This document shows, one piece after another, positions 3,433-16,445 of a stretch of DNA of 64,000 bases. The notes beneath the pieces were generated by a model, which was not told the DNA's origin, did not search any database, and worked only from the letters and a program-made list of their open reading frames with translations. A program made the position numbers and the translations under genes. The DNA comes from an uncultured Poribacteria bacterium (GTDB taxonomy: Bacteria; Poribacteria; WGA-4E; WGA-3G). The stretch spans positions 2,816,001 through 2,880,000 of the forward strand of contig OX638351.1 in the NCBI GenBank assembly GCA_951813565.1, given 5' to 3'. Numbering within the stretch: position 1 is the stretch's first letter; the number at the start of each line of letters is the position of its first letter.

Positions 3433-4629
3433 TCAACCAAGCAATACGAGGTTATCCCGATGTATAATTTCATCGTAATCGTGATAACCGAGAATTTTTT
3501 CTATATCCTGCGTCTGCTTTCCAGCGAGTTTTGAAGTTTCTGTGGAGTTATAATTTATCAAGCCACGAGCGAATTCCACTCCATTTTCGGTGAAACACGA
3601 GACCGTATCACTGTAATTAAAATGTCCTTCGACGCGCCGAATACCTGCAGGCAATAAACTTTTTCCACCTTGCACAAGTGCGTCTCGTGCGCCATTGTCT
3701 ACAACAAGGTAACCTTTGGGTGGACGTGAATAGGCGATCCAGCGTTTACGTCCAGAGATACGAGTATTGGGAAGGAAAAGTGTGCCGAGCAGTTCGCCTT
3801 TAAGGAGGCGCGTAACTATAAGAGGCTCTCGACCATACGCGATAACTACCATTTCCCCAGAAGCAGTAACAATTTCGGAGGCTCGCAACTTGGTAATCAT
3901 GCCGCCAGTACCGCTGGTTGTGCCAGCTTGCCCCGCGGCTTTCCACATTTCCTCCGAAATAACGTTGACGGTGTGGATTAATTCCGAATCTGGATTTTGT
4001 CTCGGATCTTCTGTGAAAAAACCGTGCTGATCGGAGAGAATAACGAGGAGATCGGCTTGGACAAGGTTTGTTACGTAGGCTGAAAGTGTATCGTTATCGC
4101 CTACCTTAATTTCGTCTACAGCGACACTGTCGTTTTCATTAATAATAGGAATGGCATCAAGTTGAAGCAGCGCATGCAAAGCGTCATTCATACGGGTGTA
4201 ACGTTTCCTGTCGGAGAAATCATCCTGTGTGAGCAAATGCGTGCTGCACACTTGTTGATAGTGGCGGAAACGTTCTTCGTAAGCAGCCATCAATCGAATC
4301 TGTCCGACAGCAGCAGATGCTTGCAACTCGGGTAACGTCTGCGGTTTTGTGCTAAGACCGAGATAGGGCCACCCTGCCGCAATCGCTCCCGACGTGACCA
4401 AGATAACTTCAACTCCATTTTGTTTAACAGTCGCTAAATCGTGAACAAGACCATCAAGGGCAGATTCATTGATGCGCAGGTTGTCTGAAATGGTGCTACT
4501 ACCAACTTTTACGACAATGCGTTGGACATTAGATAAACATTCACGATCTCTAACCTGCTTATGTTGATCCATACCGTTGATTTGTCGGTGCGACTGTGTC
4601 TGAGTGAAAATCTCACCAGATTTTTCCAT
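3433..4629 (-). CDS. proB: Glutamate 5-kinase with PUA domain (start uncertain)
   Basis: RIVVKVGSS, PIINENDSV, GDNDTLSA, GTGGMITKL, SLLPAGI, IIHRDNLV. Confidence 0.97.
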   Translation of the reverse strand: MEKSGEIFTQTQSHRQINGMDQHKQVRDRECLSNVQRIVVKVGSSTISDNLRINESALDGLVHDLATVKQNGVEVILVTSGAIAAGWPYLGLSTKPQTLPELQASAAVGQIRLMAAYEERFRHYQQVCSTHLLTQDDFSDRKRYTRMNDALHALLQLDAIPIINENDSVAVDEIKVGDNDTLSAYVTNLVQADLLVILSDQHGFFTEDPRQNPDSELIHTVNVISEEMWKAAGQAGTTSGTGGMITKLRASEIVTASGEMVVIAYGREPLIVTRLLKGELLGTLFLPNTRISGRKRWIAYSRPPKGYLVVDNGARDALVQGGKSLLPAGIRRVEGHFNYSDTVSCFTENGVEFARGLINYNSTETSKLAGKQTQDIEKILGYHDYDEIIHRDNLVLLG

Positions 4630-11738: not shown

Positions 11739-12755
11739 TTAGGGATGTAACGCTGTTTTAACACCGCGTTGCGCGATAGCGTTATCAAAAGCTTCTAAAC
11801 CTTGTGAAATGGAAAACTGATCGGTTAGCAAAGGTTTGAAATTGATTGCTTCTTGTAGTAGGAGCTGGCGGGATTCTTGAAGGCTTGCTCGGGAAAATGC
11901 CCACGAAGCCATCAGTTTGTGTCCGGTATAGTGAAATTCTTCTAAGTTTATGCGAAGTTCCTCACCTTCCGGCGCAAGACCGAAAAAGTTGATACAACCG
12001 CCTTTGCGTATAACCTGAAAAGCGAGGTTAATCACTGACGTTTTATTTGTCGTAGCGGAGATGACGGTATCAACACCGCCGTGGGTGATTTCATGGAGAT
12101 GTGCAACATTGTCAGGAGAAATATCAAAAGCGGCATCGGCCCCGACAGTTTCTGCGACAGATCTGCGGTAGGGTAGAGGGTCCAGAACGTAGGTTGCTAA
12201 ACCTGCTCGTTTCGTCAATTGGGTGAACATCAACCCGATGGGACCAGCACCGAGGATGGCAACAGTGTTTTGGAAAATGGTTTCTTGCATCGCATTTAGG
12301 CAGCAGCCTAACGGTTCAAGGAAAAGTAGTTCTTCTGGTGGGATGGTGTCTGGCACTCGGATGAGTTTGCCCGTGTCTATGCCGTGTTTCGGCATCCGCA
12401 TGTATTCGGCGTAGCCGCCATCAATGTCGTGTCCGATACCTTCAATCGTATCGCAGTATTTGTCTTTGTCATTTCGGCAATGCACACAACTCCCGCACGA
12501 AAGCATCGGATTTACGGTGACCCGTTCGCCGACTTTTACTTCCGGATGCCGACTCTCAACGATTACACCTGCGAGTTCATGTCCCATCACAACAGGTGGT
12601 GAATAGTCTGATATATCGCCACGGAGCGCAGCAAGGTCAGATGCGCAGATACCGCACAACTCCATCTTGATAAGCACATCCCCGGCATTGAGTGTGGGAA
12701 TTGGTTTGTCTTGTATGCGTAACTGCTGAACTTTTTCAAAAACGATTGCTTTCAT
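11739..12755 (-). CDS. Zinc-dependent (MDR family) dehydrogenase
   Basis: MKAIV start, GICASD, GHE, CxxCxxC Zn site, GAGPIG. Confidence 0.92.
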   Translation of the reverse strand: MKAIVFEKVQQLRIQDKPIPTLNAGDVLIKMELCGICASDLAALRGDISDYSPPVVMGHELAGVIVESRHPEVKVGERVTVNPMLSCGSCVHCRNDKDKYCDTIEGIGHDIDGGYAEYMRMPKHGIDTGKLIRVPDTIPPEELLFLEPLGCCLNAMQETIFQNTVAILGAGPIGLMFTQLTKRAGLATYVLDPLPYRRSVAETVGADAAFDISPDNVAHLHEITHGGVDTVISATTNKTSVINLAFQVIRKGGCINFFGLAPEGEELRINLEEFHYTGHKLMASWAFSRASLQESRQLLLQEAINFKPLLTDQFSISQGLEAFDNAIAQRGVKTALHP

Positions 12756-12762
12756 ATACGTT

Positions 12763-14319
12763 CTACGCAACCAATGGGCAGTTTACGATGCTATAACTAT
12801 ATCCATCGCGCTTTTGAATTCTTCGGATTTCGGTAATATTTCCAGATTTTCTCGAATCTTTCTCTTCAGGTGCAAAGTATTCTACGCGAAGTTTACGAGG
12901 TTTGCCTACTGCGGTTTTATCAAAACAGTTGATTATCCCTTTCCATTTCCGATCTCGCTTTGTTATCTCAACGTAGTCAAACTTCGCAAAGCCATTTACA
13001 TGCGAAACCTTAGTTGATGGTTTGATGAAACCGGGTGCTTTCATGTCAAATATCTTGCCTACATTGTCGCGTCTACCATATCCTTTAGCTTCAATGATAG
13101 CAACTTGCAGCGACTTAGCTCGTTTCGGAACAATCGCAACAGACGCAGCATCATAATAATGCGTTTTCGGCAATCTGGCAAGATTCCGATGATGTGCTGT
13201 TTTTCCACCAGTGCCACTTATTATTGGGAGCCCTGTTGTTTTGAGTGTCTCAAACAGTTTCCACCGAATAGTGTTGATTGCTGCAGCATCAGAAAGACCC
13301 TTTTCAGATTTTCGGGCTGCTGCTTGGACCTTCTTTGCAAAATCAGTACCAAGCTTTTCTTCCAACTCGGCTCCGTGCAGTTTACCTTTCTTTTCGTTGC
13401 AGTCTTTACATGCCATCGTCAAGTTGCTCGGACGGTTATCTTCACGAACGGCTTTAGGTGCGATGTGTTCTACTTCTAAATGACGTTTGCCTTTTCCACA
13501 ATAAGCGCATTTTCTGCCAGTCAGTTCTAAAAGATATTCGCGTATCTCACGTCCCCATAAAGTTCCTTGTTGATATTCAATGCCATGTATACCAGGATTT
13601 TCCATCAACTGCATATCAAATTTCACCGTCTCAATTGCCAATTGTGTAATCGGGTAAATCTTACATAACCGTCGGGTCCAGGTCTCTAAATTGAAAACAC
13701 GGGACATCAAACTCGGTGCCACCCAACCATTATCGGCGACCCGTTGATGCACAACGCGAATGCGTCGCCAGCGTTTCTTTTGACGCTTGTTCGTTTTGGT
13801 GTCAGGTAAACGCTCCCAACGATACCGCTCGTCTAAAAACATCGCTTTTGACACGCGATTCAAGTCATTTTGAGATTTACTGGAATCCATTCCCTCTGGC
13901 ACTGAAGCACGTTCATATCTCCATCCGTTTTCTGTAAGAATTGGCACTTGACGTTTCCGATTTGCCCACCGAGCAGGACGATACCGTAGATTACGAGTTC
14001 TACGTCCTCTACGAAAGCCCGAACGTTTTTGAAGATTTCTTTTGATTTGCTGCCCACGGTGATGTAATTCCGCAGCATAGACTATATCCCCAGATTCAGA
14101 CACAATGGCGATTCCACTGATGCGTGATCCCGGGTCCCAACTCAACGTATACGGTTTTGTGACAATTTCCGATTCTGGAACTGCTTTCTTAAGAATAATC
14201 GTAAACGGGTATTTTCGCCATATTGCTGCTTCACCGCGTTTCAGTAGACGACGTGCTACAGCAGGATGACAAGGTTCTAAAGGGTTTTTGTCTGTATCAA
14301 TAACTGCTACTTTTGACAT
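12763..14319 (-). CDS. iscB: CRISPR-associated RNA-guided nuclease IscB with extra insertion after bridge helix
   Basis: PLMP-like N-term (PLEPCHPAVARRLL), RuvC-I WDPGS (D62), Arg-rich bridge helix, RuvC-II E230 (ETVKFD), HNH CAYC..EHI..N..CxxCN, RuvC-III H387/D390. Confidence 0.93.
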   Translation of the reverse strand: MSKVAVIDTDKNPLEPCHPAVARRLLKRGEAAIWRKYPFTIILKKAVPESEIVTKPYTLSWDPGSRISGIAIVSESGDIVYAAELHHRGQQIKRNLQKRSGFRRGRRTRNLRYRPARWANRKRQVPILTENGWRYERASVPEGMDSSKSQNDLNRVSKAMFLDERYRWERLPDTKTNKRQKKRWRRIRVVHQRVADNGWVAPSLMSRVFNLETWTRRLCKIYPITQLAIETVKFDMQLMENPGIHGIEYQQGTLWGREIREYLLELTGRKCAYCGKGKRHLEVEHIAPKAVREDNRPSNLTMACKDCNEKKGKLHGAELEEKLGTDFAKKVQAAARKSEKGLSDAAAINTIRWKLFETLKTTGLPIISGTGGKTAHHRNLARLPKTHYYDAASVAIVPKRAKSLQVAIIEAKGYGRRDNVGKIFDMKAPGFIKPSTKVSHVNGFAKFDYVEITKRDRKWKGIINCFDKTAVGKPRKLRVEYFAPEEKDSRKSGNITEIRRIQKRDGYSYSIVNCPLVA

Positions 14320-14330
14320 TTTTTATCCGT

Positions 14331-14580
14331 GGATGTTGAGATACCCGAAAGCACCTCAACATCCAAAGCTCGCCTTGCGGCGGTAATGTGAGCCTCGTCA
14401 ATGTTATTTCTGCTTTATAACAGGGTTGACAGCGTATTGTAAAGCTGTTTACATTGCCCCGACAGCGCTCCCGGCTGGCTCATGTACCTGGAGGTGTCTA
14501 TATCAGAAATAACGGATTTAATGTTTCCAACCCATAAAGGCTTGACTAGATACCACTTGGGCATGTTTTTTGTTGCAATT
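14331..14580 (-). ncRNA. omegaRNA/HEARO-like scaffold with 5' anti-repeat (tracrRNA-like)
   Basis: Minus strand carries HEARO-like blocks CGTTATTTCTG..GACACC..GCCAG..CTGTC..TAAACAG..CAGAAATAACATTGACGAGG..TTACC..CGCAAGGCG; anti-repeat 14549-14578; 3' hairpin 14331-14364. Confidence 0.8.
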
Positions 14581-14673
14581 TTTGCCGTCAACCTCCCAGC
14601 AAAAATGCAAGATTGGAGGTCGACTGCAAACTCTTAAGACTGACGCTTGACGCAGCTTGACTTTAAGTATAGG
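14581..14673. promoter_or_regulatory. Putative CRISPR leader with inverted repeat
   Basis: TTTGCCGTCAACCTCC..GGAGGTCGACTGCAAA palindrome next to the intact end of the array. Confidence 0.5.
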
Positions 14674-16445
14674 GTTGCAACTCAAACATGCCCAAGCGAT
14701 AACTGCTATCTTCAGCAAGTATCTGACCTTCCTTTTGGGCAAGTTGCAACTCAAACATGCCCAAGCGATAACCTTCAAACGTGTGCGAAAGGCGTTCAGC
14801 ATCTTTTTCGTTGCAACTCAAACATGCCCAAGCGATAACTCTGGTCTGCTGCTTCGTTTATAATGTCCTCAATAGCGTTGCAACTCAAACATGCCCAAGC
14901 GATAACTTATTTAAACGCATATCAAAAATGATAGCACTAAAAGTTGCAACTCAAACATGCCCAAGCGATAACTTGTTCAGCGGATATATCATCACTGGAT
15001 TTGACGCGTTGCAACTCAAACATGCCCAAGCGATAACACTATTCTATGAGACATTTGAGATAAAGCAAAAATTGTTGCAACTCAAACATGCCCAAGCGAT
15101 AACGTTTACCCCTCCGTTTTGCCTCACCAGTGACATCTACCGGTTGCAACTCAAACATGCCCAAGCGATAACTATGTGATGCCGCAATCTCCCAAGATGT
15201 TGGACTTAAGTTGCAACTCAAACATGCCCAAGCGATAACTTTCGATCCTGAAATACCATATGCTTGGGAGCGTGAGTTGCAACTCAAACATGCCCAAGCG
15301 ATAACGCGCGGACCGGCTTTGGTGCGTTCCGCTAATCCGTGATGTTGCAACTCAAACATGCCCAAGCGATAACTTCGGCACATACAACCCTGTAGCACCA
15401 CCTGTCTCGCGTTGCAACTCAAACATGCCCAAGCGATAACACAGAAGGCTTAGACGATTACATGAAACTCAAAAGTCGGTTGCAACTCAAACATGCCCAA
15501 GCGATAACCGAGAAGTAACGTGTGTTATCATTTTCATCTTTCCAGTTGCAACTCAAACATGCCCAAGCGATAACATGTAAAACACCCTTGACTGTCTCAG
15601 GCGTAACCAAGTTGCAACTCAAACATGCCCAAGCGATAACGAAGTACCAAGACCACGCTGCGCAAGATTGCCAGCAAAACGTTGCAACTCAAACATGCCC
15701 AAGCGATAACTTCGGCTGGGGTGATGAAGTATATCTTCAAGGAGTTAGTTGCAACTCAAACATGCCCAAGCGATAACATGGGCAATCGCAGTATCATCAA
15801 AACACTTGAGTTTGTTGCAACTCAAACATGCCCAAGCGATAACTCAGCTGTCCTTTTTCGTTTGCGATGTTGATGCCAAGTTGCAACTCAAACATGCCCA
15901 AGCGATAACGAAAATCGGGGATATAGTCGTAGCGCAAACAGAAGCGTTGCAACTCAAACATGCCCAAGCGATAACTGAGATTCTTTCTTGGGCAAATGAT
16001 GATAAAAATTCGGTTGCAACTCAAACATGCCCAAGCGATAACTCTACGGAGTCTGCACCTATAAATTGTGCGTAACGGTTGCAACTCAAACATGCCCAAG
16101 CGATAACAAAGATCGTCACCACAGGATTTAACAGCAAGGTCAAGGTTGCAACTCAAACATGCCCAAGCGATAACGTATTGGATTGCTCACGGGATTGTCC
16201 GATGCAACGCAGGTTGCAACTCAAACATGCCCAAGCGATAACCACCTCTGCTTTCACTGTAATTATTTTCTGTTTGGTGCGTTGCAACTCAAACATGCCC
16301 AAGCGATAACTCAAAACTTCGTTTAGCGACTTCTTTACTTCAACGCTATGTTGCAACTCAAACATGCCCAAGCGATAACCTATGAAAGCCATCGTTTTGA
16401 AAAAATCCATCAAGTTGCAACGCCAGCACGCTTAAGTGATATAAC
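14674..16445 (-). CRISPR. CRISPR array: 26 identical 30-bp repeats plus 1 degenerate repeat, 26 spacers of 34-40 nt
   Basis: + strand repeat GTTGCAACTCAAACATGCCCAAGCGATAAC; degenerate copy at 16414-16445; strand inferred from anti-repeat G-U pairing. Confidence 0.98.

Follow-up and report, generated by a model that had tools for sequence, protein, structure and literature searches.

RESULTS

Organization of the locus

The window (i.e., the whole 64-kb stretch of DNA that was analyzed, at 2.82 to 2.88 Mb of the 5.43-Mb genome) carries an iscB gene together with a CRISPR array and a structured noncoding RNA (ncRNA). The module lies on the minus strand and reads in the order degenerate repeat, 33-nt unit, array, linker, hairpin, anti-repeat, structured RNA, and iscB. 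Nothing other than the array, the ncRNA, and iscB makes up the insert, which is placed between two housekeeping genes; since these flanking genes are 192 nt apart in the same-genus genome G017, the module represents a clean insertion. No cas genes were found at the IscB locus, and the two cas1 genes of the genome are far off, at 1.20 and 3.99 Mb. The IscB element is single-copy in this genome.

All features of the module described here are encoded on the minus strand. The array (14674 to 16379) has 25 unique spacers (35 to 40 nt) set between 26 identical 30-nt repeats; the 26 repeat copies show 0 mismatches, and the repeat occurs nowhere else in the genome. Beyond its outer end are a 33-nt unit (16380 to 16412), nominally spacer 26, which is a non-foreign, inverted copy of a dehydrogenase gene start, and a degenerate 27th repeat (approximately 16413 to 16442), which is the outermost array unit and matches the reference of repeat family D3 at 73% as its last copy. 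On the iscB side, a 43-nt linker (14631 to 14673), whose sequence is conserved across loci, connects the proximal repeat to the scaffold. It is followed by a conserved 50-nt hairpin (14581 to 14630), which is enclosed by the repeat:anti-repeat duplex and was recognized both as helix 2 of the covariation test and by RNAalifold, and by the anti-repeat itself (14549 to 14578), which was traced by its letters, dimer folding, the HEARO alignment, and covariation. The match to the Rfam HEARO (omegaRNA) family spans positions 14383 to 14624 (model positions 1 to 211). Terminal hairpins and the iscB 5' leader occupy positions 14320 to 14382, where the sequence could be aligned with those of relatives and where RNA-library contigs reach position 14322, and the structured RNA extends up to the iscB start codon.

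The IscB protein

The iscB gene (12763 to 14319) encodes a protein of 518 aa, which was identified by Pfam matches (RRXRR N-terminal family, 3.4e-60; HNH, 2e-9), by a phmmer comparison with the PDB (TbaIscB, 4.4e-35; OgeuIscB, 5e-19), and by structure prediction. Its AlphaFold2 model (pLDDT 79, pTM 0.74) had IscB-omegaRNA structures as the top Foldseek matches (E values of 1e-22 to 1e-15). The protein has the RRXRR/PLMP N terminus and the HNH-split RuvC fold of an IscB, and its length lies in the range of approximately 400 to 600 aa.

In the segment separating the bridge helix from RuvC-II, the protein carries an insertion of approximately 70 aa (residues ~124 to 199; window positions 13720 to 13950). 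The insertion at this site differs in length by lineage, from 0 aa in Ktedonobacter through ~17 aa (low-repeat group), ~70 aa (window's group), and ~125 aa (loci L063 to L066) to ~150 aa (locus L067), and is larger in the long-array lineages. We considered the insertion of the window IscB as a precursor of the REC lobe and rejected this idea, given that it is predicted to be mostly beta, with a patchy confidence of 41 to 88 in the AlphaFold2 model, and that such inserts have already been described. The portion of Kannan et al. (2025; PMC13180657) available to us uses the name "CasIscBs" and reports REC-like inserts located after the bridge helix and before RuvC-II.

An omegaRNA scaffold with a replaced first helix

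A sequence-only reading of this DNA had proposed a HEARO-like RNA at the locus, with GUCAA/UUGAC as a candidate pseudoknot. Both proposals were borne out. The Rfam HEARO model (RF02033) matches the minus strand with the iscB gene alongside, and the two arms (GUCAA at 14542 to 14546, the 5' arm; UUGAC at 14397 to 14401, the 3' arm) fall on the annotated pseudoknot columns of the model and constitute helix 3 of the covariation test. The covariance-model search that had been suggested as a check yielded a HEARO match at an E value of 1.1e-9, but its score of 56 bits is under the curated gathering score of 83 bits and therefore below the cutoff. It is the only Rfam match between positions 12000 and 18000 and the only HEARO match in the 5.43-Mb genome. 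The corresponding scores were 83.3 bits in the nearest relative (L036) and 117 to 131 bits at canonical loci.

The missing bits are lost in the first helix of the HEARO model, which is the helix replaced by the anti-repeat. The last 8 bases of the anti-repeat align to the 3' strand of this first helix, the pairs of which are flagged as broken, and two bases after the anti-repeat the Rfam alignment enters the GUCAA arm of the pseudoknot. The core helices of HEARO and the pseudoknot are present according to the Rfam alignment, covariation, and RNAalifold. The available text of Kato et al. (2022; PMC9640706) states that the repeat:anti-repeat duplex of Cas9 corresponds to the guide-adaptor hairpin of IscB. 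That a duplex substitutes for the guide-adaptor stem had likewise been proposed for the window, and three observations agree with it: the duplex is located between the guide and the pseudoknot in the Rfam alignment, it covaries, and two relatives have it as one hairpin in cis. From these comparisons, the view that the repeat:anti-repeat duplex takes the place of the guide-adaptor hairpin is well supported. One detail of the sequence-only reading has to be corrected, namely that the anti-repeat stands at the 5' end of the omegaRNA: the HEARO match begins 46 nt upstream (at 14624), and the conserved hairpin and the linker precede the anti-repeat.

Pairing of the repeat with the anti-repeat

The anti-repeat has the letters that the earlier reading had quoted, at the same positions (14549 to 14578). 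Folded as minus-strand RNAs, the repeat and the anti-repeat give a duplex of 25 pairs, two of them G-U, in which blocks of 18 and 7 pairs are separated by a 2x3 internal loop; its energy is -37.7/-38.2 kcal/mol. The plus-strand RNAs form a weaker duplex (-30.4 kcal/mol), because U5-G and G7-U turn into A-C and C-A. The argument that G-U wobbles fix the strand is thus upheld: repeat positions 5 and 7 wobble on the minus strand and mismatch on the plus strand. When the first 20 repeat bases were scanned without gaps against both strands of the window (128 kb of sequence), the anti-repeat formed 19 of 20 pairs and was the sole site outside the array with at least 18, the next-best sites reaching 17 of 20.

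At position 2 of the duplex, all 13 loci have U opposite U (window positions 14577/14703; alignment columns 2 and 204), a mismatch that persists while the neighboring pairs covary. The position-2 U-U is likely a recognition feature.

Relatives and covariation

At a threshold of E <= 1e-80, IscB was detected in 12 other genomes among 176 of the phylum and in none of the 39 other genomes of the window's genus that were searched. A metagenome scan returned three loci (L044 to L046), none of which is close, and approximately 60 related protein clusters were found at 55 to 90% identity. The alignment used below, which combines the window with 12 loci taken from 10 of the phylum's genomes, runs from the proximal repeat to the start codon. 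When every copy differing from the proximal repeat at up to 4 positions is counted, the repeats per locus number 27, 26 (+1), 20, 20, 13, 8, 6, 5, 4, and 3; by eye, L070 has two repeats and L068 and L071 have one each. Arrays of 3 to 27 repeats are thus retained in 10 of 13 loci, with spacers that are wholly different between genomes. Another locus, L069, has a short ordinary hairpin without a repeat. At L068 and L071, the single repeat follows ordinary flanking DNA and precedes the same linker, hairpin, and anti-repeat in cis, a form that amounts to one long hairpin between the guide and the pseudoknot.

The structure tested for covariation consisted of repeat positions 1 to 17 with the anti-repeat, the inner hairpin, and the pseudoknot (38 pairs). 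Across the whole three-helix structure, 84.4% of cells were paired, compared with 29 to 42% when the partner was slid by 1 to 3 columns, and the covariation score was reached by 0 of 500 shuffles. Changes on both sides were seen in 12 of the 38 pairs, distributed over the repeat:anti-repeat helix (7 of 17 pairs; 82.5% of cells paired), the inner hairpin (3 of 16 pairs; 87.9% of cells paired), and the pseudoknot (2 of 5 pairs), although these counts are inflated because L063 to L066 are near-identical and kin are not independent. Pair 7 is G-U in 8 loci and G-C in 4. Without a supplied structure, RNAalifold paired columns 1 to 12 with columns 194 to 205 and predicted the inner hairpin as well.

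Across the 13 loci, the mean duplex energy was -31.0 kcal/mol for cognate partners and -23.4 kcal/mol for non-cognate ones, and in the window, L064, L067, L068, and L070, the cognate partner ranked first among the 13; the energies were computed gap-free and hence penalize the split anti-repeats of L036, L061, and L062. At these three loci, an insertion of approximately 50 nt (at 3672 to 3735 in L036), in which two hairpins can be discerned by eye, splits the anti-repeat, and the halves flanking it still match their own repeats.

Transcription and RNA maturation

A conserved insert of 95 nt connects the proximal repeat with the anti-repeat, and by this linkage in cis the proximal spacer is a natural single guide. 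In RNA libraries of sponge metagenomes, there are contigs that extend without a break through the scaffold, the anti-repeat, the linker, and the outer end of the proximal repeat. Contig X1 (219 nt) corresponds to positions 14486 to 14703, X2 (311 nt) to 14394 to 14703, and the more diverged X5 (366 nt) to 14322 to 14697, while X6 covers 14322 to 14505. The contigs originate from three studies in all, those bridging the joint from two. They show neither strand nor ends, may include DNA, and stop at the repeat, which is a usual breakpoint for assemblers. The depth gap seen with X1 (~490 to 860 for the ncRNA versus 2.5 for iscB) was discarded as a measure of expression, as the two values come from different contigs and probably from different strains.

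The linker contains a promoter-like -10 element on the minus strand (14666 to 14671), with a -35 element inside the repeat (14689 to 14694; 9/12 match). This site is present in the window and L036 and absent in L067, L063, and L062; being found in 2 of the 5 loci scanned, it leaves a supply of the scaffold in trans unsupported by conservation. No terminator-like site was found between the array and the scaffold on the minus strand. Another, strong promoter-like match (10/12) faces opposite to the scaffold strand at an equivalent, conserved position in the window (14426 to 14455, plus strand) and in L063 (5204 to 5175, minus strand) and is probably a by-product of the conserved RNA motifs.

Searches of the window's genome for RNase III with PF14622, PF00636, and TIGR02191 gave no match, while the same profiles, used as controls, matched in 8, 8, and 10 of 14 reference genomes, respectively. 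PF14622 had no match in any of 31 genomes (i.e., the window's and 30 relatives), and the sole dsRBD protein of the genome (G000:C1:3109623-3109820) is without a nuclease domain. Marker counts put the completeness of the genome at 95%, so that the absence of RNase III is likely, though short of proven. Judging from these profile searches, the analogy with crRNA:tracrRNA probably does not extend to its RNase III step. By the same analogy, the suggestion that spacers of any position could load in trans is plausible. We infer the use of distal spacers because the 26 repeats are identical, 10 of 13 loci have held on to an array, and the spacers have been replaced entirely from one genome to another.

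Spacers and adaptation

The window array is a diverse, real array. Its 25 spacers had no matches in their own genome beyond chance matches of 16 to 20 nt, and 1 of these 25 foreign-looking spacers has any match at all: spacer 4 (14907 to 14942) matches genome G148 at 36 of 36 positions (G148:C3:48497-48532). The protospacer lies inside a gene for a 511-aa protein of no Pfam or PADLOC family (locus L115, G148:C3:39000-58000), which is accompanied by genes for a 2,472-aa RadC-like JAB protein and an SNase homologue and by a CHAP match just under the cutoff; from this gene content, the neighborhood is probably a mobile element. Since a single protospacer was found, a target-adjacent motif is not derivable. 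The whole window array had no match in the phage and plasmid collections. For the arrays of L062, L061, and L036, the search across the 176 genomes revealed no protospacers, all similarities being of the array-to-array repeat kind.

One of the two cas1 genes of the genome is located beside cas4, a type III-A csm set, and a type I-B cas3/5/7/8 set, and adjoins an array with 30-nt repeats; the other is beside a reverse transcriptase and adjoins an array with 37-nt repeats. Spacer lengths are alike in the three arrays (IscB, 35 to 40 nt, mode 36 to 37; the other two, 34 to 41 nt, mode 37, and 34 to 41 nt). Cas1 was matched in 9 of 10 other IscB-bearing genomes (one of them by a fragment only), never near iscB, and gave no match in G150 despite its 8-repeat IscB array. 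In genome G094, a spacer of the 27-repeat IscB array (L067, C1 at ~622 to 624 kb) is identical at 36 of 37 positions to a spacer of a type I-B-like array (L088, C1:530604-530647) located approximately 7 kb from cas1. In both arrays, the 37-nt spacer has identical ends, and it reads in the same direction when oriented by the GTTT with which the repeat starts. This is as expected if one adaptation machinery serves both arrays, to which the single case points. No spacers were common to the IscB arrays of different genomes. The cues for array polarity conflict, in that the degenerate distal repeat suggests a new proximal end and the sense of the G094 spacer suggests the opposite.

The dehydrogenase gene starts 7 nt past the iscB stop codon, and the outermost unit corresponds, in inverted orientation, to the first 33 nt of this gene. 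The unit is identical at 31 of 33 positions to the gene start in the same-genus, element-free relative G017 (L083), and approximately 19 related genomes match it at 88 to 94%. The window's own gene start (12724 to 12756) is less alike (~27 of 33). No inverted copy of a downstream flank was found in the arrays of the 12 other loci, and the unit is so far unique to the window. It may be a relic of a guide taken from the flank in the manner of transposons, or it may have been left by an integration event. The degenerate distal repeat (16413 to 16442) is closer to the repeat of L071/L068 (~24 of 27 positions by eye) than to that of its own array and looks, from this resemblance, as if it were an older version.

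Direction of evolution

A maximum-likelihood tree was calculated for 16 IscBs, with two Ktedonobacteraceae proteins as the outgroup and a midpoint root. The deepest within-phylum split has arrays on either side, and L067 (27 repeats) is the sister of a group with 0 to 4 repeats. We therefore abandoned the idea that a single repeat is ancestral; with this placement, collapse of an array to a single repeat is equally possible, and the single-repeat forms may be collapsed arrays.

Several further observations concern the mobility of these elements. Genome G112 (contigs C178 and C202) has three IscB copies (L068, L071, and L072, with 1, 1, and 3 to 4 repeats), two of which are 27 kb apart on one contig, a distribution suggesting that the low-repeat form still moves. 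Solitary repeats (29/30) occur at one syntenic site in two genomes (L080, G129:C52:12058-12095; L081, G098:C78:4513-4547). Neither G129 nor G098, the latter belonging to the window's genus, has an IscB at E <= 1e-80, and the solo repeats are possible scars of lost elements. An additional array with a related repeat is found at G075:C1:4747471-4748021, in a genome absent from the IscB matches at E <= 1e-80.

DISCUSSION

A proposed guide duplex in place of a guide-adaptor hairpin

We propose that the array, a tracrRNA-like omegaRNA, and iscB constitute one module, in which the duplex in the place of the guide-adaptor hairpin directs IscB to matching DNA, and we put the probability of this reading at roughly 0.85. 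The repeat 3' of a spacer would pair with the anti-repeat, and the resulting duplex of approximately 25 bp would stand where ordinary omegaRNAs have the guide-adaptor hairpin. The repeat-proximal end of the spacer would thereby be set at the guide position, beside the pseudoknotted scaffold bound by IscB, and IscB would be directed to DNA matching the spacer. Non-proximal spacers would be used through trans pairing with a separate scaffold RNA or through long-range pairing within one transcript, maturation would proceed without RNase III, and new spacers would be provided in trans by the genome's own Cas1-Cas2(-Cas4).

That the complementarity is a chance inverted repeat or a transcription terminator is hardly credible and is already refuted by the window scan and by covariation; inverted repeats are common, and nothing more speaks for it, whereas the 19 of 20 pairs compare with a best chance value of 17 in the 128 kb scanned, the complementarity is conserved and covaries in 13 loci, and no T-run follows the anti-repeat. 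It is very improbable that the array is one of the genome's type I-B or III-A system and the complementarity of the IscB RNA a leftover. The 30-nt repeat length and the spacer lengths do equal those of the I-B/III-A-linked array, and the spacer common to both kinds of array in G094 is in line with such ownership. However, the two repeat sequences agree at 12 to 14 of 30 positions, the array accompanies iscB in 10 loci and never adjoins cas genes, and the covariation of the anti-repeat requires selection on pairing.

The proximal spacer alone might be functional, the remaining units having arisen from repeat duplication or stray Cas1-Cas2 activity, as the covalent joining of the proximal unit to the scaffold and the existence of single-repeat relatives would allow. 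We consider this unlikely, given that all 26 identical repeats are complementary to the anti-repeat, that the arrays retained in 10 of 13 loci, 3 to 27 repeats long, have wholly different spacers between genomes, and that anti-repeats track their own arrays. A choice in cis is possible, although we hold it to be doubtful: the array, the scaffold, and iscB would form one long transcript in which the single anti-repeat takes any one of the 27 repeats as its partner, housekeeping nucleases would trim the remainder, and there would be no separate tracrRNA. Consistent with this are the lack of a terminator-like site from the array to the scaffold on the minus strand, the bridging of the linker by RNA-library contigs, the unconserved promoter-like site, and the failure to find RNase III. 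A single scaffold per transcript, however, would allow one spacer per molecule and favor the proximal one. The function of DelIscB as an engineered single guide, as far as the accessible part of its description goes, is silent on cis versus trans.

Relationship to known systems

The locus is a CRISPR-associated IscB of a published kind; that is, it adds a new member, and its design is not new. Altae-Tran et al. 2021 (Science 374:57) reportedly dealt with CRISPR-associated IscB, and the supplements of that study may already list loci of the phylum Poribacteria. In the sections available to us, Zhang et al. (2025; PMC12660989) list spacers, repeats, and an anti-repeat among the contents of the DelIscB ncRNA, attribute the discovery, TAM, and in vitro activity of DelIscB to Altae-Tran et al. 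2021, and note that whether and how the DelIscB ncRNA is processed into two parts needs investigation. Measured against these sections, the window locus has the same PLMP-type N terminus, the same ncRNA in which spacers, repeats, and an anti-repeat are fused to an omegaRNA scaffold, an array beside iscB on the strand of the ncRNA (the strand being given by the G-U pairs and the HEARO match), and, likewise, no adaptation genes at the locus. The window IscB (518 aa) is set apart from DelIscB (457 aa) by its length, going by the description of the latter as far as we have it. On the same basis, the window locus differs in being chromosomal, in belonging to a sponge-symbiont phylum, in its large array (26 + 1 repeats), in the conserved 95-nt insert (linker and hairpin) from the proximal repeat to the anti-repeat, in a host in which no RNase III was found, and in relatives that span 1 to 27 repeats.

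With canonical IscB-omegaRNA systems (i.e., OMEGA, OgeuIscB, and Rfam HEARO RF02033), the locus shares the protein fold, the scaffold core, the nexus pseudoknot, and a guide located 5' of a stem adjoining the pseudoknot. In contrast to these systems, it has a 25-bp duplex instead of a short hairpin, with the 5' strand repeated 27 times with different spacers, and its element is single-copy, shows no sign of transposition in the window, and has a HEARO score below the cutoff. The resemblance to type II CRISPR-Cas9 lies in a spacer-repeat RNA that pairs with an anti-repeat heading a scaffold RNA encoded between the array and the nuclease, and in a duplex with an internal loop. Unlike Cas9, the window IscB is without an alpha-helical REC lobe (the mostly beta insertion of ~70 aa occupying that site) and has a PLMP domain; moreover, the locus is without cas1/cas2, the genome yielded no RNase III match, and the scaffold is a full omegaRNA of approximately 250 to 300 nt. 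We tentatively raise, as an idea that we rate as less probable than its opposite, that this lineage is a living intermediate on the way from OMEGA to type II systems, with an opened hairpin, feeding by the type I-B Cas1-Cas2-Cas4, no RNase III, and a flank-derived outermost guide with an archaic repeat.

By itself, the finding rediscovers a published design and changes little; its value lies in the surrounding family. The 13 natural loci, with 1 to 27 repeats, provide a map, backed by covariation, of the bases of the repeat and the anti-repeat that must pair, including the invariant U-U mismatch at position 2 and the tolerated insertion of approximately 50 nt. They also give three leads on questions raised in the accessible parts of the DelIscB paper and of work on the origin of Cas9: on RNA maturation, which is apparently without RNase III here; on spacer supply, through one spacer common to an IscB array and a type I-B-like array; and on how arrays might arise from a transposon guide, through an outermost spacer derived from the flank.
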